From: Tricharina praecox
Taxonomy: Eukaryota
Direction of reading: 5' to 3'
DNA length: 64,000 nucleotides
Assembly (NCBI RefSeq): GCF_024521635.1
Contig: NW_026250403.1
Span: forward strand, 2,666,001-2,730,000
In this document: positions 2,919 through 37,556 of the stretch, in pieces
Layout: every line of letters begins with the position of its first letter
Numbering within the stretch: position 1 is the first letter of the stretch
Program-made: the position numbers and the translations under genes
The notes under the pieces: generated by a model
Told to the model about the DNA's origin: nothing
The model's input: the letters and a program-made list of their open reading frames with translations, nothing else
The model's database searches: none

Positions 2919-5695
2919 ATGGCTTCCCCAACCCCCATGGATATCCTCTACGGCGATGGCCCCGTGGTCCCCTACCGCAAGCCTTCGCAGGAATCCTCGC
3001 CTCCTCCTTCTCCCTCTCCGACGACGACCACGAACATACACCGGTATGACCATGTGGATAGGGAACTGACGAGTCCGCGGTCCCTGCCGTCGTTTTCCAC
3101 ATCGTCTACGCCCGCGCCTCCGAAACCTGCGCCTCTCGATACGAATGTGAACGCCTCCTCCGCACGGCCGAAACTACCGGGACGACAAGAGACGCCGCCA
3201 TCACCACCCAACTCGGTGCTGCTGCAGAGCAATCGGGGATCGCCCATCACTCCGGTGGATAACATGGGGGCCGTAGATTCAAAGATTGTTCAAGGACACG
3301 GTGGTGGCAGTGGTGTCGACTCGCAACACAATTCGTTGATGGAAAAGTTCACCAGGGTTTTCAGAGGCCACAAACGCGGGAGTTCGGAAAATAGTTGGTC
3401 TACGACCAAGGGTGGATATCGGAGACATCGGAAGGATAACTCCCATTCGACGAATAGCACCGGGAATCCACTCTCACTACACTATCCCATGGCGTCGTCG
3501 CATACTTCGTTGCAGGATGACCTTGAGCCCACAATAGAGAAGCAGGGGCTCTATCCACACAACAAGAACATCAGCCCAAACATCAGCCCTATAAGCGCCA
3601 TTAGTGCCAGCCAGGGATATGTTGGGAGCAGCACGGGGAGGAGGATTATCAATGGAGGTGAAGTGAGGATAGAAATCTTTCCGCAACAACAACAGCGACA
3701 GTCGACGGTGAGAGATGTGGCACTTTTAGGCCACAACGACGGAAGTATGAAATACTACGACTACTACACGAGGTCGAAACCAACCAGTCCCGCTGGTACA
3801 CAAGAGGACGACATCTCCGAACATGACATCTCGCCGGTTAGATTCGTGCCTTCACTCATCCCAACAACGCAACCCCAGCATCGAACGTTGCGATCACGAC
3901 ATGATCTTGTACGTAACGGAACGGTGGATACTCAGTCTTCTTCGGAAAGTCGGGAGAGGAGGTATGTGGAGGAATCTATGGCTCGGGAATATGGGGGGTT
4001 TCAGTTCGAGGTTACGACCGACTCGCCAACTTCATACGCTCCCGTCGGCATGCCCAGGACCGAGAGTGAGACCTCGTCGAGGCCGTTCGATCGCACCAGC
4101 AGGAAAGCGAGCAGTGGTGTTCTGAACGATCCATCGCGAAGCGATTCGAGCAACTCGCGGAGCCAATCGTCACTGACCAGGAACGGCACAACGGGGAGCA
4201 CATCGAGGCGACCGGTAATGAGCAGGGAAATATCGTCGAGCTCGTTCATCATCAACGGGCGAATATCGACGCAGGGAGCCGGCGGCAGCACGACGGAAGA
4301 GCAATTTGCGCAAGGATTGAAGAGACTGAGCAAGATATCGGCAGGAAGTGGGGTGAGCGGAGTTGCTATCGTCGTTACCGCCGACGGGCCTGCATCTACG
4401 CGCCGCTCCGCAGGGAGCGACGGCGCAGACGACGACGACGATCGTCATGGTGGAAGCAAGTGGACGCGGGAAGAGAAAGGCAAAGCGAGAGCGCCGTCAT
4501 CTGAGCCCGGCACACACGACCAGAGGAGTCATACGCGGTCGCGAAGCGGGCAGAGCGAGTGGACGATCGGCACGGCGCCTACGCGCAGCAGCGACGATTA
4601 CGACGACTCGAAAAGTCTGATTCCAGCGATACCGGACATCTTACAAACCCGGAAGCTGAAAGCACAAGAACCCAACGAGGATGTTATCGTGCACCCAGCG
4701 GACCCGAGATACGAGTTGTAAGTTTGCCTTTTTGCAGTTCCCGTCCGCTCGGACCAGTGCATATAGGATCATTGCTGACCGCATCAAGCACTTACCGTAT
4801 GCGCCAGACATCGGATGACAACCCGGTATTTGTACCACAATACCGTTACGACGCACCGTTCTCGTTTCCCAACCGCAACGCGCTTGGTGCGCCCACTCCT
4901 GCGCAACCTCCCAAACCCGCAGATGGCTCCCAGTACCCGTCGTCGTCGCCGCTGGTAAATCGTGTGGGTGGTTCGCTCCTCAAGCGACCGCCAAGTGCCA
5001 TCCTACGTTCGCCTGTTACCGACCCGTTCGTTGGTGATATCCCGCAAGGAGACGACACGTACGACGTGCCACCGGGTAAAGGTCAGAAGGCCAGGGTGTC
5101 TCAGACTCATCCCGCATTGAGAGAAATAAGGAACGGTGGCAGCTTGACCAGCCTAGAGATTTTTGGGAGCGGCATGAGGGCTGGTACTTTCGGTGCGGAA
5201 CACAACAGACTCGACACTGGCAGATCTTCCCAAGATGTCGCCACCTCCGAGGATGGGCAGAGAATTACATGTCGCGATAATGGCCTGCTTCGGCCACCAC
5301 AAGAAGCCCATCGTTCCAGTTGGGACCCGTCACGGTTCCTCGGCCAATTTCCCGCGCGGCCCAGACAGTTTATGCGTCGTTCCTTGACGCCACACCTGTA
5401 CAGCCCGCAAGACGTCGACATGGACCCAGCAAAGGTCGACCAGGACCACAGTACTTTACACCGACAACAGAAGATCGGTCGGCTGCTGCTACTGGCGTGT
5501 GTGCTGTTTCCACCATTGTGGTTCGTGATGGCTTGCGGAGGGTTTGATACCTTTGTCGCGAACTGGACAACTGGGGCAGTTCGCGGAGTCGGAAGCGTCG
5601 AGAGGAAGATTGCGTTGGTCCTTGCTACTGTTGCGTGCATTGGTGCTGTGGTGGGAGTGATCGTGGGCATAAGTGTGGCATCCACAGCAGCGTAG
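2919..5695 (+). CDS. Ser/Pro-rich hypothetical protein with two C-terminal transmembrane helices (2 exons)
   Basis: ORFs 2919-4721 and 4559-5695 join in frame through intron 4718-4788 (GTAAGT...GCTGAC...AAG; TT+C=Phe). The C-terminus has hydrophobic segments LLLLACVLFPPLWFVMAC and IALVLATVACIGAVVGVIVGISV. Confidence 0.8.
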
Positions 5696-6791
5696 AGGGT
5701 GGGGACAGTCCATGAAGGTGTACATATATCCATCCACCCGCACCATGACACCGGCAAACGTCTTGTTTCCTTCTGTTTTTAACTCCAACATCTGGAACGC
5801 ATCATTACTTACTCTCATACCTATCTCTCACACCTCGTCTTTTCCTTTTGTTGTTTTTCCTTTTGCTTGCTTCGGTCTTGGGGAAGTTATTCCACACATA
5901 CAAGATACATGGATGGGTTATCAGGGCGTTCTTCTGTTTTTTTCTTCTTTTTTTTTCTTCTTGGCTTTGGCTTTGGTTGTTTTCAAGGGAGTGCGCAGTA
6001 CCTACTTTACTCTACAGTTTAGTTTTTTTGCTTTGCTTTTTTTTGCGTGCTTTTTGCGGGTATCACGGCGGTGATGGTGAGGGTGATGGTGATGGCGGAG
6101 GGGGTTATTGCTTCTTGTATATCATTTAGGGGCTGGAATTGCGGTTTGGAATTGCGTGGGGGGGGCTCGGTGGTTGGTCGGTTGGTTGCTTGTGTTTTGC
6201 TGAGCGGAACATTTCCGCTCGTTCGTTCGACTTTTGGGGGACGGGACTGGGACTGAGACGGGACTGGGTTACAGACACTGGGTTACAGATATCACACCGA
6301 AGGAAGTCACTTCCTTAATATTTCCTTTTGCTTTTTGCGTTTCTTGGTGGTGGTGGTGGTGGCGGCGGTGGGTTCCAATGGAGAGTTCTATACTACATTA
6401 CGCTAGGAATAAATTAGCATCGAATGTCACTCGACGGATACTAGTGAACACACTCGATCATAATGATATTATGTGCGGAGAAAGTAGTGGTTTCATTTCC
6501 GCAGTGCGGTCTACTATACACGTATCTTAGAGGTCACATGCAATTTGAAGATAACAAAAACGGAAATGGAAACAAAACGGAAACAGCAGCAGTGATAGTA
6601 ACAGCAACAGTAGCCTTCGTCACTTTTGAGTCTGGAGAACCCAGTCCAATCCAGTCCAGTCCAGTCCGACGGGGGAAGTATTTCATTATTTCATCTCTCA
6701 CAGGTACTATGTAGGTAGGTACACTCATAGCTCCGTCCGTCCACTCCTCTATCCGGGTTTCCATCATTATCATTATCATTATCATTCCTTC

Positions 6792-28756: not shown

Positions 28757-30606
28757 CTAATCCATAGCCAACAAGCTCCTCCCGCCATCCTCCGTGACCC
28801 TCTTCCTGATCCTCACCCTCATGTAGCGAACGCCTATCTTCTCTATCTTTGCCTTCCCGCAGCCGGCGATGCCAGAGACCTTCATGTCGCCCAACTTTTC
28901 CGTCAAGTCCTGAAGCGTAGGCCGCACCTTTCCCCAAAACATCTCGTCCGCCACCATCTCCTCACGCACACCTTCACTATTCCCGCCAGCAGGGGGCTTT
29001 ACCGCCACTTCCTTTGCGGCCACGAGCCCACTGGGCGCAAAGACGAATGCCTCACCGCAGTCCAGTCCGACCACGCGGGTCATCAAGCCGCCACCGCCGG
29101 CCCTTCCGTCCTGTTCTGCGGCGGCGATGTGAGCCTTTAGGAACGAAAGCCACTCGGGCGACGAAAAGCGGTGGACGATGGTGAAGCTGCAGAGATCCAA
29201 AAGCTTCGACGAGATTGTAGGCTCCTGCGTAGATATCACCACCCGTGTCCCTAAGTGCCGCTGCAGCCGGATGGTGCTCAAGAGCGTGTCCGTAAATCGC
29301 TGCGCGGAGGCGCTGCCTAGCATGTACTGTAGTTCTCCCACTCGGTTATTAGGTGCCGTGCGTAGGTACATCGGCCTGGAGGAGTTCGGTAGCAACGTGA
29401 ACGTATGTGCGTACCTTGTGGGCTTCATCCACTGCTATGACTTTGCCGGTGGTGACCGGGCGGTCGAGGAAGAGGTGCAGGCAAATATCGAATAGTGAAC
29501 ACGCCGTGCTATGTCCCATTAATCCCACCGTAAAACCCCCCAGGAAACGTGCGTATGTACGTACGATTCATCCACAAAAGGATCACTCAGATCAATGATA
29601 GTCAGATGTCCCGGCGTGACGGACCACAAGTCGACCTGCTTCTCCGCCGCATTGGTCGCCATGAAGCTCTCCAAAATCTCGAGCCTCAGATTCAACGGGG
29701 ATCGCTGCTGCGGTGTCAAATCGACATTTTTGAGCAACAGTTTGAAAGATTTATAATTAAATCCCGTGGCGGTATTAGCCATAGCCCTTAGAATCTTCCT
29801 GACGACTTCCATGTACAGCGGCGGCTTATCGTCAGAAAGGTCCACCGCCATCAGCGTGAGCATCCGCGTCACGTCCAGATCACTCTCACGGAACCGCAGC
29901 GGCCGGATCGTGAGCCGCTCATTGGCGCCTGGGATCAAGGGGTACAGCTTTGTCGCCCGCGTGAATGAGGAGGGCGCGACGAGGACCGTCACGGGGATCC
30001 GTGAGGCTAGATACGCTGCCTCGCACGGCTTTTGTAAGTGTTTGTCGTAGTGGAAGACGAGGCCTGTCAATGGAGCAGGCAGCTCGCCGATGGAGGGGTC
30101 AGAGAGCAGGAAGTTCTCTGGAGTGGTCCGTCAGTGAGACTGGCTTTCATTTCAAACAGGTGCAACGTATGTATGTGTGTACATACCCAGCATGCACGAA
30201 AGAGTATTGCTCTTGCCCGAGCCTTGCACGCCGCAGATGAATGCAGACAACTTTATATGTACTTCACTTTAGCCATCTATACCTGTACATAGATCTGACC
30301 ACTACCCTGGAGTAGACCACATACCGGAGCATTCCCATTCAAAAACAACCTCCCATCCAAAGCCACATCGTGCGGCGTAGTTCTTCCCGCCTCGGGGTCC
30401 AAAACCTCCACCTGCCGGCCGAGCAGCGCGAACTCTTGGTATCCGGGGAGCTCGTCGTCGAGGTCAATCTCCTTTCCTGCCAGCGAGGTAAAAATCGGAG
30501 CGGTTTTCACCGTTTCGATCCACGCCGGGTTTAGACTCCCGTGACCGCCAGAGAGCAGCTCGTTGTGGGCGTCGACGTTGTCGTCTGCGTGGGCTGTGAA
30601 GGACAT
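28757..30606 (-). CDS. P-loop ATPase with HerA/FtsK-superfamily-like motifs (5 exons)
   Basis: Exons 30606-30325, 30250-30187, 30117-29565, ~29508-29415 and ~29327-28757 splice in frame through GT-AG introns. Motifs are Walker A FICGVQGSGKS, Walker B KVIAVDEAHK, IRLQRHLG and VVISTQEP. Confidence 0.85.
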
Positions 30607-31125
30607 GATTTGATACCGATCGGAGTGATTTGAAGAAGAACGAAGAGCGGGCGGGGGAAGCGGTTCGTCTACATATCAAGGACAATTTAGTATCATGCTT
30701 GCACTGCAAAAAAAATTCTCCAATTTTTTCGGACCGGCGAGAATAGTGGGGGGTTCCAGGCGATTCGAGCTCTGGAATTCGGGAATTCGGGAATCTTGCG
30801 GCGGATACCCGTGACTTATCTGCCGTGATTCGTGAATCCGTGATTTTGGAGCCTACATACATATCGGAATCCCGCGTAAGGGACCAGTCACCGAAAAATT
30901 GTAACAATGGCGCAATGATAGGTTGTGAATGTATAGAGTTGTCATGATAAGTAGGGTTGTGCTTCTGTGCCGTCGTATACATAACAGTATCAACAACGGC
31001 GAAATTTTGTCGACCAGCCTCATCCGCTTCGTCCAACATTATGAACCGCGGCCACATGCGCTGCATGTATGGGTGGGATTTAAGTGTTGAGAGAACTTTG
31101 ATCGTACTGGGTGAGTGAATGGGAA

Positions 31126-31202
31126 AGTGAATGGGACACTGCAGACACTTGTGCTAGGTGGGTGAACGGCAGAGTGAATGGGACGTTGTAGACACTCGTG
31201 CT
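31126..31202. repeat. imperfect 30-bp direct repeat (31126-31155, 31173-31202)
   Basis: AGTGAATGGGACACTGCAGACACTTGTGCT vs AGTGAATGGGACGTTGTAGACACTCGTGCT (26/30). A third partial AGTGAATGGGA lies just upstream. Confidence 0.8.
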
Positions 31203-31360
31203 GAACTCACCGAGTTAACAGAATAACGATGTCAATACATTTGATGGGGTCGACTCAAAAAAATCCCATGGAGGGGTCAACCGTCAACCCCGCTTACTGC
31301 GCACTCGTATGTACTGAGGGGGGACAAAACAATGCGACCCAGACAGGGGTGTTTTCCGTA

Positions 31361-34214
31361 GAGAGGTTGTATGCCAACGGAACCTGTATGTCAACAGAAT
31401 GAACCCAACCCTCTTTAGCTAGCGTACTCTGAAGAGGCTTGAAGATGCTTAGCGCGAGTGATATTTGATGATATAAAATATTCGGCTTCGTCGCGGCGGC
31501 GATTCGGCTGCCCGCGCATGGAGTCCTTCTTACAAAATCCCCCCGAACTCAACCAGTTTTGCTCTAACTAAGTCAAGTACAAAGTCAGATTAATCCTCAG
31601 ATGTAGGCCGTTTCAGCTATTGTGAAAACTTCAATAAAAACAACTCGTATTAAGATTTAAATACTCCATCTCCAAGTCTTTCAGTCATCCTCCTGCCCGT
31701 CCTCCGACCCACTACCACTTCCCTCTTCCAGAGTTTCTTCCAAACGACTAATGTCGTCTCTCAATGTTTGCAGGCGGCTTATCTCCCTTTTTTCCTCCTC
31801 TTGCAACCGAGCAACTGACTTCAAAGTGGCTGGCAGCCGTTTTCCATCCTTCTCCATTCCCATATATTTCTCTTTCTTTGCTGTTAACTCCTTCACCCGG
31901 TTGGCCAGCTCATCAGCTTTTTCCTGCATCCTTGCGAGCCTTGCAAGGCGAACATTCTGTCGTACGTGCTAGATATTCCTCATACTCGTCTATCTGTTGG
32001 ACAGACGTAAATTGTCGGCTCTCATCTGGAATTCTTCGCCGTTTTCGCGGTTTTTGTTGTTTTCTAGCTGACTCCCGCTTGGCTCCAGCCTCAAATCTCT
32101 ACTCCAAATCGTCGCAATGGTGAAGTTTCACTATGTGAGCTTTTGAAACTTTGCTGAAACCATGGCGAAGCCTCCATGAACGTGGACTGTTGCTTTTCAG
32201 ACCCAATTCAAGGGATTCGCGGAGTTAGTGGAATTCTCGATGATCCCGAGAGGTGGAAATTGCGAAGACCTCGGCCGCAGAAAGAGATGATAGTGAACGA
32301 ATCGGAGAGGAAGTCGATAGCTGAGATGGCAACTCAACACTGGCTTGGGTGGCTGTTGGTTTTTCAATGTCAAGAGTTCTTTGAAGAACCTCGAAATCCA
32401 AAGGGACTAGGCCGGTCCACCAGAACCCACTGCGGATATTCTCCGATGTAAATGCTATCTTCTCTGCTTCCAGCAGAAAACGATAGAAGTTTCCTTTCCA
32501 AATACCATGCTCTCCAGATTCGGTATGGCGCCGTAGGACATCGGAATATGCAGCCTTTAAAGGTGCGAAGAGGGCAACATCAAGGGGTTGAGAGAAATGG
32601 GTGGTGTGGGGAGGAAGACACACAGGCAGAACTTTGTAATCAAGACAAGTCGACAGGAATTCGCGGTTGACATGAGATATATGCCCATCGAAGATAAGCA
32701 TCCGCCACTTGCCAGCAGCTTTCTTCTCCGACGGATATTCGGGGCCGAAATTGTGTTGCAACCAAGCAAGAGCCTTGCCGTTATCTGTCCAGCCATTGGG
32801 CGATACGCCGAATAGAACATCGCGAGGAACTCCATCGAGGTTCTGAAACCATGTGTCCTGTAGTCCCTGGCCCTTCATGATAACCGCTGATGGAAGATAA
32901 GTGCCGTCTGCACAAATGCAACATATCATAGTCGCAAACTCGCGTGAACCATCTTGGATCCGTGTAGCAGTAGGCAGTTGAAACTCCTTCAAATCCGGAG
33001 GAAAAGGGCGTCCTTTCGTATTGCGAGGGTGCCAGATCACATCTAGTACACGTTGTGACTGTATATTTCCCATCACAAATCCGGTTTCGTCGAAGTCGTA
33101 TGTATTCTTGGGAATGACCTCGAACTCGGCAACTAAATCTCGCATCTATTAAGTCACTGAAAGTCAGCCATCGATTATTTCGCCAAAGATAATTATGTAG
33201 AAGGAAGAACGGTGGTAAACGGTACATTTGAAAAGAACAAATCCAACGCAAAACATTTGTTGCCATGATGTGCCCGGATTCTATCGAGCTGTTGACTCCA
33301 CCTGACCTTCGTCTCTGGATGTTGATTGTAAAAATATCTGTCAATCCATCGAGGGCTGATGGTTGCTGCTGGGACTCGTTTCCGTAAAATGGTTTGGGCC
33401 ATATCTCGAACATCTCTCAGGGTCTGTGGAAATCCAGCTTGCTGCAGAATCTCACAACGCCAAATCAGAGTTTCTTTCTCTCCTTCCAACATCAGCCGAC
33501 AGGCCTTCTCGTAGTCTGCCTTTGTTCTTCGTCCAAGTGATCAATGTACAAAGGTAGACTCTGCCATCATTGCTATCACTGCAGCTCCCTTCTTCGATGG
33601 TACGCCACCTCGCAGGTACGCTTGTAAACCCTCTTGAAACCGAATATACTCGGGCAGGTTTTCGCGTTCGAACGGTGAATTGCTGTTTCCTGAAGCTGAT
33701 ATGGTGTTGTCATCGCCGGTTGCAATCTGGTTGTTGGCTGGGAACTCGCTATTTCCGAAAGTCTTCATCACCCTATCGCCTCCAGCAAGCTCCTCCTCCC
33801 CGGAGACCCTCGCCGCTTCCCCTCCTAGCTCATCACCCCCAGCAAGCTCCTCCCCGACAACTTGTGAACCCCCTTCGCCGCCAGAAAGCTCCTCCTCCCC
33901 CGAGATCCTCGCCGCTCCCTCTCCCAGCTCAACTTCATCATCCCCAGCAACCGCATTGCCGACAACCACTGACAGAACCTTATTGCCATTCGCCATTCGC
34001 TGAACTCTCTCGCTGCTACAGAACAGTGTATCTACCATCTACATAGGTAGCTAGATGCCTATTGCCCGCTGAGTGAAGCTCCCCCTGAAAAAAATGAAAA
34101 ACCTAGAAAAAAAGAAAAGAAAAAAAGAAATACACACACGAACCATCTACTAGCGTCTCCGTATTTGTCTGGGCATTCTCATGGCATACAGGTTCCGTTG
34201 GCATACAACCTCTC
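31361..34214 (-). mobile_element. Fot1/pogo-family (Tc1/mariner superfamily) DNA transposon
   Basis: Perfect 30-bp TIRs GAGAGGTTGTATGCCAACGGAACCTGTATG at 31361-31390 and 34185-34214, flanked by TA (31359-60, 34215-16), enclosing a transposase pseudogene. Confidence 0.92.
31681..34038 (-). pseudogene. Fot1/pogo DD35D transposase pseudogene
   Basis: HTH/CENP-B-like region (LIWRCEILQQAGFP...PRWIDRY), intron 33225-33146, and catalytic FDETGF, IFDGH and QPLDV with 35 residues between D2 and D3. In-frame stops are TGA 33543-33541, TAA 32227-32225 and TAG 32101-32099. A frameshift near 31970 precedes a coiled-coil C-terminus. Confidence 0.9.
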
Positions 34215-34216
34215 TA

Positions 34217-34316
34217 CAGCGCCACATCAGAAGTTATGTCCACTACACCAAAATCAAAACATCACGTCGCCGTCGCGGAAAATGGTGTGGTGGACATGAC
34301 TTCTGATGTGGCGCTG
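34217..34316. mobile_element. 100-bp MITE with 34-bp TIRs and TA target duplication
   Basis: CAGCGCCACATCAGAAGTTATGTCCACTACACCA (34217-34250) pairs with 34283-34316 (32/34). TA lies at 34215-16 and 34317-18. Confidence 0.88.
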
Positions 34317-36569
34317 TACGGAAAACACCCCTGTCTGGGTCGCGTTATTTTGTCCTCCCTCAGTACTGGGGAACTTCCTCGCTATCGGTGACTTGGTGGT
34401 GTCTCGTGGCGTGCATGTAGGAGTGCTTATTTATTTGCCCCTGTTCCTGCAAGTGCCCGACAGGACCGTGGTTGTGTGGAAGGTACCCGTGTCCCTAAGC
34501 ATTGCAAGCAATGGTTACGACCCGGAACGCAGATGGCTGTACATATTTGACTGGACGAAATAGTCCCTTGGACCATGGCTGGCATAGGGTGGGATGACCG
34601 TCCCATCCATCATTCCTCATGCCCAAGGACCAGCCCATCTAAGTGACGTCCTATCAAACAGAACTTACTGGGTCATCTGCGGCCATCTGCGATCCTGCGC
34701 TCGCATTCTTGCGACGCCGGGGTTGGCCCAGCTGCCACCTGCAGCGCAACCTGGGAATGAAATTCCAAAGTTCACCTGACCATGATCTCGAAACCGTGGC
34801 TGAGCATTGCGCACGGTAGAGGGGAAATAACTTAGAATGATGATAATGTAAGCTTGTTATTCTTGCGTATATATATCCGACCTCTATGGAGATTGTGGAA
34901 ATCATTTTGGTGTTTTTTCGGAACCTGTAGGCCGGCGTGGGAGCAGAAGTAAAAGCGGAAGTCGATGTTCGCTATTCGACATCCCCTAGGTAGGTATTCC
35001 GGTGAATGAGCTGTGCGGAGGGTTCTATCTGCACAAATCCTCAATAGGTGCGAATTCGTCCCATGAGTAGCTGCATGGCAGCGTGGGGCTTGTCGCCGAA
35101 TTGCACTTCTAAGTCTGAAGTCAACGCCATTGCTGACGTACATTGAGCGTTGGTATATTTTCTCAACGGAGCAATTTCTTCGTGAATGTAGATTGCGGCG
35201 TCGGTATGCTCTCGATGAATTCCAATTTTGATACATGTCAAGTTGTGATCGAAAAACGCAGTTCTGGACGCTGGGGTCCCATGAGAATGAACAGGATCTC
35301 GCTTCTCGACGAACCATCTTTCTAGCATTTGCCGTCCAGCCGTCCCAGCTGCCGGCTTCACGCCTCGAGGTATGGTTACTGGTCATTCGCTTTCACTCTG
35401 TAACCAAGAATTCAGAATTCCACATAAAAGTGGCGGTTCGGTAGCTGGCACATGAAGATGGCAGTGTGGCAGTGCAATTACAAGAGCGGCTGTGGCTGGC
35501 TAAAGTGGCTGGAGCTCCTAGGGATCCATTCCTCGGAGGGGCAGACCTCGTCAATCCGTCTCATCTGCGTTTGAGGACCGGCCACTGACCGCCATATCCC
35601 TTAAAGTTAGTGCGTAAGATGTCGATCATCACTCGTCACTCGACTGTGTGTAGTTAGTGGCGCCCGTGCCAATTAGATCGCAGATCCGGTAGGCCAGATG
35701 TGTAGCTGAAGGCGAGGGATCGACCTGAAATATCCGTGAGGACAAGCTTAAGGGGGTTTGTGTTTAGGCAGGTACGTAGGCGGGCACCGGGCCTTTTTTT
35801 GGGCGATGCGAGCTGCCAACGACTGCGTGCCCAGGGGCTTCCACATGCTACGTTCCTGGGGGGCCGACACCGACTGTCACCCAGTAACACGCCGATGCCA
35901 GGGATGGAGCGCACGTAAATAATTTGCCATCTCAAACGCACGCTGTTTCTCCATGGCTAAGCCTTCCGAGCGGATCGGAGGGATCTACCTTACAGACGCA
36001 CTACTGGGGCGCTTAGGTGTGGGCGCCGACCCAACCGATTGGTTACCACCAGGGGTAACTAGAGGGTACCTGCCGCTGAGAATGTTATCCCTTCCGATAA
36101 CCGCTCCTGCTATGCACCAGCCCAGGGACCGCCAAAGTTTCATGTTGACGCTCGAACCTACGCGGGTTTTGCTGGATTCCTCAACGCCACTGGTCGAGCG
36201 ATCATGAGCCGTCTCGAGCTGCAACTTCTAAATCAATTGGGCGTGCACGCCCTATGGTTGTGAACACACATTCTTCTCCTATTGCCCCTACTCAGCTCAT
36301 GTCGAACCTATATATGAGGCCCTCGCCCATCAGCTTGAGTGCTTCCATATTCCAACTTACAATCATTCAATTCGGCCTCCAGTACTCGCTTCGTCTGGAA
36401 CGTTCTCGTTTTCCTTCCTCTTCTCTGTATCTTTTTAGGAACTGGTTTCCAACACACTCCCTCCTCTTCTTTCACTGCATTTAAAAGGAAAATCATCCAA
36501 TACTCTCTCTCTCTTCGGTTTCGGACAAAACACATACAAACTTCATCAGTCAGAAAGAAAAGGAAAAAT

Positions 36570-37556
36570 ATGATGTTTTCAAAGGCTACCCTCATCTCCG
36601 TCCTATTGGCCGCCGCCGCCAGTGTCAATGGGCACATGCATATGTCGAACCCTCCGGCGCTCGGCGCATCAGAGAACAAGTTCACCGCCGCAGTAGATGT
36701 CAACATCGACGCACCCCTCGCCTCGGACGGCAGCGACTTCCCTTGCCGCGGTCATTTGAATCTCATCGGCACCGCCGCGGGCGCTTCAGTCGCGGATTAT
36801 ACGGCCGGTAGCACGCAGTCAATCACCGTTGCGGGTGGAGCCCGTCACAACGGCGGGTCCTGCCAGGTTTCACTCTCGGAGGATGGTGGGTCCTCGTGGA
36901 AGGTCATGAAGACTTTCATCGGAGACTGTCCTGCCGCCGGTGCACCTTTGGGATTCACTGTGCCCGCTGAAGCGAAGTCTGGAGAAGCAATCCTTGCTTG
37001 GTCCTGGTTCAACCAGGTCGGCAATCGCGAGATGTACATGAACTGTGCGGCTGTTACCATCAGCGGTGGCGGCAGTGGCTTGAGCGCTCTCCCGGATATG
37101 TTCGTTGCCAACGCTGGTAACGGATGCACCAGCAACGCCGAGGGAACTGGTGACCTCGAGATCCCCAACCCTGGCGAGGACGTCGAGAGGAAGAGCACCA
37201 AGTCCAGCCCCCCGGTTGGCAGCTGTGCCTCCGGTGGTTCTCCAGCTCCCCCGGCCGATGACTCGTCTTCAGCTGATGCCCCCACCGCTACCGCGCCTGC
37301 CGAGACCGCCACTGAGCCCTCGCCAACCAGTGTCGTCCCCACCTTCATCATTCCCACCCCGGAGCCTACCATCCCCGCCGATTCTCCCACCGCCCCTGTG
37401 GAGACTGCCCCGGCGGAGACTGCACCTGCGGCGACGAACACTTTCAACGATGGCCTGTACCGCCCCACCGGCGGAGCCAAGACCTTCGACGATGGGCTCT
37501 ACCATCCCAAGGCCACGGCGGCGCCTACCCGCGTCGCATACCGTTTCCGCGCCTAG
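36570..37556 (+). CDS. AA11-family lytic polysaccharide monooxygenase with P/T/A-rich linker
   Basis: Signal peptide followed by N-terminal His (VNG|HMHMSNPP), then DFPCRG, ARHNGGSCQVSLS and WSWFNQVGNREMYMNCA. Confidence 0.88.
   Translation: MMFSKATLISVLLAAAASVNGHMHMSNPPALGASENKFTAAVDVNIDAPLASDGSDFPCRGHLNLIGTAAGASVADYTAGSTQSITVAGGARHNGGSCQVSLSEDGGSSWKVMKTFIGDCPAAGAPLGFTVPAEAKSGEAILAWSWFNQVGNREMYMNCAAVTISGGGSGLSALPDMFVANAGNGCTSNAEGTGDLEIPNPGEDVERKSTKSSPPVGSCASGGSPAPPADDSSSADAPTATAPAETATEPSPTSVVPTFIIPTPEPTIPADSPTAPVETAPAETAPAATNTFNDGLYRPTGGAKTFDDGLYHPKATAAPTRVAYRFRA

Follow-up and report, generated by a model that had tools for sequence, protein, structure and literature searches.

Transposons of the Tc1/mariner/pogo group duplicate a TA dinucleotide, and ends of the form CAG...CTG are typical of Tc1-type elements. 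The classic Fot elements are about 1.9 kb long. Guest, from Neurospora crassa, duplicates TA; it is reportedly an element of 98 bp with inverted repeats and belongs to the Tc1/mariner group (Yeadon & Catcheside 1995; Ramussen 2004). Most Fot elements, as described by Gao et al. (2020; PMC7386202), duplicate TAA and not TA. In carrot, the DcSto MITEs, which are of the Stowaway type (TA), include MITEs inserted into MITEs, independent insertions at the same position and near-perfect hairpins (PMC3695323, citing Jiang & Wessler 2001 and Hu et al. 2000).

We analysed a window of 64 kb, the whole stretch of DNA considered here, in which the preliminary description had claimed a stack of inverted-repeat elements at 31312–34365 with TA at the junctions. 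This layout was borne out: read off the sequence, the modules follow one another as TA, a 45-bp arm, TA, a 2,854-bp pogo element, TA, a 100-bp foldback, TA, a second 45-bp arm and TA. The outer left TA (31312–31313) is a candidate target-site duplication of the outer element, and the outer right TA lies at 34364–34365. Of the inner ones, the TA at 31359–31360 joins the left arm to the pogo element and would be the left copy of the TA duplication of the latter, that at 34215–34216 joins the pogo element to the 100-bp unit, and that at 34317–34318 joins the unit to the right arm. Searches with each module gave two matches in the window, against 0.00 expected from 100 shuffles; no further copy of any module was found in the 64 kb, the best other match being 16 nt long, and neither were other short foldback elements. 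The three kinds of termini resemble one another no more than shuffled sequences do, and an Rfam search of positions 31000–34700 gave no match at E ≤ 1. The locus is a transposon nest of the ordinary sort; the phenomenon is known, and the family members are new.

The central and largest module is a Fot-like pogo element (31361–34214) with its transposase gene on the minus strand. Its terminal inverted repeats (TIRs) lie at 31361–31402 (plus strand) and 34173–34214 (minus strand); their cores (31361–31390 and 34185–34214) are identical at 30 of 30 positions, and the match extends to about 41–44 nt with three mismatches. A TA stands on either side of the pair and the third flanking base differs, which indicates that the duplication is TA and not TAA. 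The second exon remnant (31982–33145, minus strand) matches Pfam DDE_1 (PF03184) with E = 2.2e-24 and 86.4 bits against a cutoff of 22, over profile positions 2–177 of 177. By hand count on the translation, the D of FDGH is separated by 35 residues from that of PLDV, the spacing of DD35D; the catalytic roles of these residues are assigned by analogy. The first exon remnant (33259–33651, minus strand) carries the putative DNA-binding region, where HTH_Tnp_Tc5 scores 17.2 bits, below its cutoff of 22.2, and where the sequence is 56% identical to exon 1 of a related locus, L003. A C-terminal, coiled-coil-like part of the transposase follows in another frame (31684–31959, minus strand). This copy of the element is, judged by its reading frames, dead: three in-frame stops, namely a TGA at 33541–33543 (where L003 has R) and stops at 32225–32227 and 32099–32101, are accompanied by one frameshift between 31959 and 31982, and contigs assembled from read runs show that other copies have two extra letters behind 31958. 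The search for transposase homologues returned 415 sequences, the named fungal ones among them being 36–49% identical and the nearest named relatives, from Tuber and Choiromyces, 41–49% identical; with the two ORFs of L003 the protein shares 56–58% of its residues. The element represents a new Fot-like pogo family, not described before, that duplicates TA and has TIRs of 30–42 bp.

The outer arms, each of 45 nt, were found by inverted-repeat search at 31314–31358 (plus strand, starting with CTGAGG) and 34319–34363 (minus strand); the left arm has no internal TA, and the two differ at 3 of 45 positions, all transitions. When arm, TA and arm were joined by script into a 92-bp sequence, it folded with −49.3 kcal/mol (z = −14.8; here and below, z-scores are against mononucleotide shuffles, with DNA parameters). 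That the arm occurs outside this locus is indicated by the metagenomic run X2: in one contig (n = 1) the match begins exactly at the outer left TA, at 31312, and the DNA ahead of it, at least 255 nt, is a different flank. Further, X2 reaches a depth of 23.9 on the arm (position 31333, the one arm position used), the mean of the bin being 9.54. By arithmetic on the depth, this excess spans about 45–50 nt, the length of the arm, and the surplus copies do not continue into the pogo element. The outer arm appears to be a separate, repeated unit that recurs elsewhere. A free 92-bp hairpin was not retrieved from the window, from public collections or from ORFs read across the modules. An exact-word scan with a 21-nt core of the arm gave no match in the metagenome, viral and genome contig collections, where the source organism is absent and which are silent on copy number, and an 84-aa frame spanning the arm and the left end of the pogo element found no candidate in a search for spurious ORFs of other copies.

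The preliminary description had offered two accounts of this anatomy. According to one, the whole is a single pogo element whose TIR is bipartite and about 77 bp long, made of the arm, a TA and the 30-bp repeat; the right copy of this TIR was split by a MITE. Beforehand this was reasonable, since TIRs of about 100 bp are known in the FotC clade and TA duplications are reported in FotC and FotD only (PMC7386202). However, at least 12 soil-metagenome contigs from four runs (four in X1, five in X2, two in X3 and one in X4) match the right end of the pogo element up to 34213–34217; these other copies leave the inner TIR and its TA for unrelated DNA. In the seven of 20 loose-end matches listed, the right-end contigs diverge into several different flanks, none of them arm-like. 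Two relatives with 61–64% protein identity, L003 and L004, start at TA-GAG, have 50-bp TIRs and lie within unrelated flanks. Add to this the surplus X2 copies of the arm, which by depth stop before the pogo element, and the contrast between 3 mismatches in 45 positions in the arms and 0 in 30 in the inner TIR, and the account fails; we give it next to no credence. The pogo element stands on its own and ends at TA-GAGAGG; the outer arms do not belong to it. An arm adjoining TA-GAGAGG at both ends of family members was looked for among the right-end contigs and the ends of the relatives and was not seen. Short-word BLAST of the modules against 13 related loci gave no match at E ≤ 0.05, and an exact-word scan with the first 20 nt of the pogo TIR gave none in viral contigs, a collection from which the source organism is absent and which is silent on copy number.

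The third module (34217–34316) is a non-coding foldback unit of 100 bp with CAG...CTG ends, arms of 33–36 nt, about 34 nt, with two mismatches in the first 34, and a loop of about 32 nt; it folds with −39.2 kcal/mol (z = −12.3). It may be a MITE in its own right or the centre of a larger, 194-bp foldback MITE, and the TAs that stand on both of its sides would be mirror images anyway if it lay inside a larger palindrome. A second copy was not retrieved from the window, from the contig collections searched or from ORFs read across the modules. Exact-word search with TA and the first 18 nt of the unit gave no match in genome and viral contig collections, which do not contain the source organism and are silent on copy number; for a 94-aa frame spanning the pogo TIR, the unit and the arm there were four candidates, none at E ≤ 10. 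One X1 contig (627 nt, 0 differences, depth 6.8) stops exactly at 34317, the junction between the unit and the TA with its arm. Such an end in a k = 31 graph points to a second sequence that enters TA-arm from something other than the unit, and a haplotype without the 100-bp unit would produce it. The unit may therefore be a separate element. This argument comes from a single contig, whose end could also stem from a SNP at 34316 or from a gap in coverage. Three of five arm transitions lie in a RIP-type context (CpA/TpA), too few to call RIP their source.

The reading that we favour, with a probability of roughly 45%, is that three unrelated, TA-duplicating cut-and-paste DNA transposons are nested at one spot of a gene-dense stretch in a soil eukaryote, probably an ascomycete fungus. 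A 92-bp foldback composed of the two 45-bp arms around a central TA would have inserted at a TA; the 2,854-bp pogo element, with its own TIRs of 30–42 bp, would then have entered and duplicated the only TA common to both arms; finally, the 100-bp foldback MITE would have entered the copy of that TA between the right end of the pogo element and the right arm. The order of the last two steps is tentative. In favour of three elements are the independence of the pogo element from the arms, the repetition of the arm and the modularity of the 100-bp unit suggested by the end of the X1 contig; both small units are also about the size of Guest (98 bp), and nested TA-type MITEs and insertions at the same position are documented in carrot (PMC3695323). 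This is in part the second account of the preliminary description, in which the 92-bp foldback served as a landing pad: the X2 contig and the depth agree with the arm being a separate repeated module, while a free hairpin was not seen. Its corollary, that the structure of the DNA targeted two elements to the apex, does not hold, because the first insertion destroys the apex. After it, the arms are either 100 bp or 2.9 kb apart, and the second element lands in a duplicated junction TA. That the insertions lie exactly at the apex needs no special targeting either, since the central TA is the only one that both arms share. The clustering is best put down to tolerance of nested insertions in a gene-dense region, together with the general bias of Tc1/mariner-type elements towards bendable, symmetric TA sites.

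A simpler model, overlooked in the preliminary description, could explain the same anatomy, although we consider it rather unlikely: a single 194-bp foldback MITE (arm, TA, 100 bp, TA, arm), with an 81-bp stem and a loop of 32–34 nt, may have been struck once by the pogo element in its left stem. In a palindrome of this kind the TA that closes the 100-bp part on its right mirrors the struck one and is not a target duplication, and both the inner MITE and the 92-bp hairpin become by-products of the position in which the pogo element landed. Folding of the sequence arm-TA-unit-TA-arm indeed gives a single uninterrupted stem (−97.5 kcal/mol, z = −21.2), and near-complete hairpin MITEs are known (DcSto3, 6 and 9; PMC3695323). 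Several observations that favour this model also count against three elements. One nested insertion is needed and not two, and for a TA and then its copy to be hit in succession is a priori much rarer than a single hit. Divergence is much the same in the outer pair of arms (3/45) and in the inner pair (2/34), with nothing but transitions in the first 34 positions, as expected of one element. MITEs seldom have the form of a loop-less palindrome such as arm-TA-arm, and a 194-bp foldback that has a loop is the more ordinary form; the window, the collections and the cross-module ORFs yielded neither a bare hairpin nor an independent 100-bp unit. Moreover, the 194-mer carries five TAs, so that landing on this one is no coincidence. 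On the other hand, the single MITE gives no reason for the branch at 34317, where the X1 contig ends; both of its sub-units would just happen to be about 100 bp long, the size of a known fungal foldback element; and the CAG...CTG ends of the inner unit abut TA directly, as those of a transposon would. A compromise, to which we give only a small chance, is that the 100-bp MITE entered the apical TA of the 92-bp hairpin elsewhere, that the resulting 194-bp compound moved here on its outer arms and that the pogo element later struck the left inner TA. It predicts an anatomy identical to that of the other models, and MITEs inserted into MITEs are known to yield compounds that remain mobile, with nested insertions reported in PMC3695323, but the compound itself did not turn up in the window or the collections searched, and the contig end at 34317 is more in keeping with a difference specific to this locus.

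It is also improbable, in our view, that the central TA of the hairpin is a true hot spot, with the first insertion, and possibly the second by way of a retained half-site, directed and not merely tolerated. The window contains 2,485 TAs, yet all the transposon modules of the 64 kb are in one place; the strand-transfer complex of Mos1 bends its target by 147 degrees with the apex at the TA, and its authors tie this bending to a bias for bendable, palindromic AT-rich sites (PMC5481204). But the site considered here is flanked by GC (CCG-TA-CGG) and is not AT-rich, no apex is left after the first insertion, and the flanks of other pogo copies show, among the matches listed, no common or symmetric context. 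Besides, this is a single locus picked from a very large scan, in which rare coincidences are expected. We would equally bet against the proposal that the loop-less 92-bp palindrome is a preferred landing site for unrelated TA-specific transposases, or that it survives only once an insertion has split its centre. Were either version true, short foldback MITEs would be the seeds from which transposon nests grow in gene-dense DNA that is otherwise free of transposons. That the structure of the DNA directs insertion is not proven. A genome-wide excess of occupied hairpin centres, if real, would be a natural test of whether symmetry or extrusion guides Tc1/mariner/pogo integration, which one locus cannot show.

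Around the nest, Pfam found nothing for six of the seven neighbouring ORFs, and a 229-aa ORF to its left had no match in the Atlas. An EMP70 fragment is among the neighbours; the Atlas gives 'Eukaryota' only. The locus adds to the known repertoire an undescribed Fot-like pogo family, from what is probably an uncultured soil fungus, together with new foldback units, one or two in number and about 100 bp long. Its practical value lies mostly in a caution: when an element inserts at a stem TA of a foldback, the mirror-image TA exists beforehand, and the result automatically resembles a nest of three elements that share TA junctions.

Like the elements described here, Mos1 integrates at TA; its target is strongly bent around this dinucleotide, and a bias for bendable palindromic sites is stated (PMC5481204). 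That bias concerns AT-rich, ordinary duplex DNA, and targeting of hairpins or cruciforms is not described there, the word 'cruciform' being absent. The two small units can be likened to Guest by size and form, not by sequence: they are foldbacks of about 100 bp, almost wholly made of inverted repeats, in what is probably an ascomycete. With the Fot and Fot-like elements of the pogo superfamily (Fot1, Pot2, Flipper, Tan1 and relatives) the pogo element shares DDE_1, the DD35D spacing and TA duplication; its TIRs of 30–42 bp fall within types 1–2 of PMC7386202, and its two-ORF layout is like that of L003. It differs in being longer (2.85 kb) than classic Fot elements, in duplicating TA and not the usual TAA, in being a dead copy and in an HTH_Tnp_Tc5 score below the cutoff. 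Finally, the nest as a whole differs from those of the carrot DcSto elements in that its host is probably a fungus, one of the partners is a full-length pogo element, and the junctions share what was once a single TA.

Direct reading of the sequence bore out the nested layout with shared TA junctions that the preliminary description had reported at 31312-34365. From left to right, the outer TA (31312-13) is followed by a 45-nt left outer arm (31314-31358), a TA (31359-60), a pogo element (a Fot-like transposon) of 2,854 bp with its transposase on the minus strand (31361-34214), a TA (34215-16), a 100-bp foldback unit (34217-34316), a TA (34317-18), the 45-nt right outer arm (34319-34363) and the right outer TA (34364-65). 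Three transitions are the only differences between the two 45-nt outer arms; the pogo terminal repeats are identical over 30/30 nt, with similarity gone by about 41-44 nt, and in the 100-bp unit the arms, ~34 nt long, mismatch at 2 positions. Each repeat pair gave 2 matches in the window against 0.00 expected (100 shuffles). Within the 64 kb we found no further copy of any nest module (best remaining match, 16 nt) and no further short foldback element. The surrounding eukaryotic DNA is gene-dense and includes fragments of EMP70, succinate dehydrogenase flavoprotein, SNF2 helicase and a UDG-family protein, and GC falls from ~54% in the window to 49% across the nest. To the right, 36339-37553 holds a 405-aa open frame with a weak, sub-threshold LPMO_10 match (18.2 bits; cutoff 23).

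The preliminary description had proposed, as one of two readings, that the arms are the outer part of a bipartite pogo TIR of about 77 bp, a fair guess since TIRs of about 100 bp are described for the FotC clade (PMC7386202). Four soil-metagenome runs from a single study (X1-X4) contain the window stretch, and we aligned their contigs to 30500-35200 at a likeness of at least 80%, leaving out as a repeat an A-rich low-complexity tract just inside the pogo right end (34080-34140; 13-nt unit, 2 copies). Among the loose ends listed, at least 12 contigs, forming 7 of 20 entries (X1, 2+2; X2, 3+2; X3, 1+1; X4, 1), follow the pogo right end to 34213-34217 and then continue into non-window DNA. Their flanks, as printed, differ from each other, without resemblance to either the arm or the 100-bp unit. 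The X4 contig (record 29) is specifically a right end, because its match extends 76 nt inward. In X2, depth on the left arm (position 31333) is 23.9 against a mean of 9.54 in the surrounding 157-nt bin, an excess that by arithmetic covers only about 45-50 nt, that is, the arm and not the adjoining pogo end. When metagenome contigs were scanned with the protein as guide, 13 related loci came up, eight of them with 61-72% protein identity. A repeat finder, run on seven (L001-L006 and L008), returned TIRs of 50-55 nt in L003 and L004, which start GAG right after TA and have unrelated DNA outside, TIRs of 25 nt in L005 and L008, and no flanking repeat pair in L001, L002 and L006. Pogo copies joined directly to TA without the arm are what the preliminary description itself had named as incompatible with a bipartite TIR, which is refuted for this family.

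That the arm is a repeated module with homology ending at TA is partly shown, because, besides the depth excess, one X2 contig among those listed begins to match at the outer TA (31312), preceded by a flank, 255 nt or longer, that differs from the window's, and another listed contig carries one base inserted behind 31333. Neither the arm nor the 100-bp unit turned up in exact-word scans of three public collections, and two attempts to find spurious ORFs spanning other copies of the modules gave none. Next to the nest, 110 nt to its left, lies a 47-bp tandem repeat (31102-31202; 2.1 copies, 79% matches), at which contigs from three runs show joints that go back by 34-84 nt; its copy number therefore differs among soil populations.

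We favour three separate, nested elements, at a probability of roughly 0.45. In a simpler model, somewhat unlikely in our judgement, arms and inner unit would be one 194-bp foldback MITE (81-bp stem, 32-34-nt loop) hit once by pogo. TA being its own reverse complement, a single insertion at the left-stem TA would have a mirror-image TA opposite it on the right, and the 100-bp palindromic 'inner element' and 92-bp 'outer hairpin' would likewise be automatic products. This needs one nested insertion instead of two, outer and inner arm pairs are equally diverged (3/45 and 2/34), the 194 bp of arm-TA-unit-TA-arm fold into a single stem (-97.5 kcal/mol, z = -21.2), and the shape is more ordinary, MITEs that form near-complete hairpins being on record (PMC3695323). 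However, an X1 contig (record 7; 627 nt, 0 differences) stops exactly at 34317, the junction of unit and TA-arm, whereas reasoning on a k=31 graph places a repeat-caused break ~28 nt further inside the unit. The break implies that in X1 a base other than the unit's last also precedes TA-arm. It would be explained by a haplotype in which pogo abuts TA-arm; a pogo-less haplotype is not indicated, because another contig (record 1) spans the left arm and reaches 27 nt into pogo. For three nested elements this suggests an order of hairpin first, pogo second and 100-bp unit last, from a single contig of depth 6.8 whose break might also be imitated by a SNP or by a gap in coverage. That arms and unit moved here together as a compound MITE seems improbable.

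The other reading of the preliminary description, a 92-bp foldback MITE whose apical TA was entered by two unrelated elements, stands only in that the arms are not part of pogo; the structure-directed targeting drawn from it is unsupported. Little should be made of the position 'exactly at the apex': apart from one site of arm mismatch, the centre is the one place where the joined hairpin contains TA, so any TA-specific insertion had to use it. Nor can the apex literally have been hit twice: the first insertion separates the arms by 100 bp or 2.9 kb, so the second element, with no apex left, goes into a TA at a junction. The clustering is nonetheless non-random, with all transposon modules at one site among 2,485 TAs in the window. 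It fits tolerance of insertions within existing elements in gene-dense DNA, and the nesting and repeated hits at one position that are well documented for TA-type MITEs (PMC3695323); EFT-9m is reported nested in EFT-3m (PMC3227409). We doubt strongly that the hairpin centre is a real structural hot spot. A symmetric site could be favoured by analogy with Mos1, since its target is bent by 147 degrees at TA, which its authors connect with a preference for AT-rich sites that are palindromic and bendable (PMC5481204), but the nest site is GC-flanked, flanks of the other pogo copies listed have no common context, and this is a single locus picked from a very large scan.

The pogo minus strand codes for a DDE_1 domain (E = 2.2e-24), and an HTH_Tnp_Tc5 match is below threshold. 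Aligned to both L003 ORFs, the window copy is interrupted by in-frame stops at 33541-43, 32225-27 and 32099-101 and by a frameshift between 31959 and 31982; it cannot make the transposase. The gap between two aligned exons (33146-33258), probably an intron, coincides in position with one in L003. The nearest other soil copy (P0001) is identical over 244 residues and then itself out of frame. Direct repeats lie in the N-terminal part of the frame at 33771-33966, namely units of 62 nt (99 nt apart, 85% identity) and four of 32 nt; the stretch they encode is acidic, rich in glycine and glutamate, and without a Pfam match. In the L003 relative (3220-5760; 2,541 bp), the 50-bp TIRs carry 1 mismatch and reading frames are open; this element may be inactive as well, because N replaces the third catalytic D of the window copy (QPLNV vs QPLDV). 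One other related element, flanks included, recurs in three metagenome contigs (L005 1724-4382, L008 3018-5677 and L006); its 25-nt TIRs begin CTAATCGC, and its drawn ends show no TA duplication. One X1 and one X2 contig, 72%-identical relatives (P0009, contig of 2413), skip 285 nt within the DDE region (window 32728-33014), pointing to a second, deleted pogo subfamily in the same soils.

A protein search gave 415 transposase homologues with E <= 0.001 out of 1,550 candidates, the nearest named ones in Tuber magnatum and Choiromyces venosus (41-49% identity), followed by Histoplasma and Pyrenophora (36-38%); this makes it likely that the host is an ascomycete. The second and third catalytic acids, predicted from the translation, are 35 residues apart as counted on it, a spacing shared with the DD35D pattern described for nearly all Fot and Fot-like elements (Gao et al., PMC7386202). 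The phenomenon is already known; the elements themselves are new, and their kinds are known.
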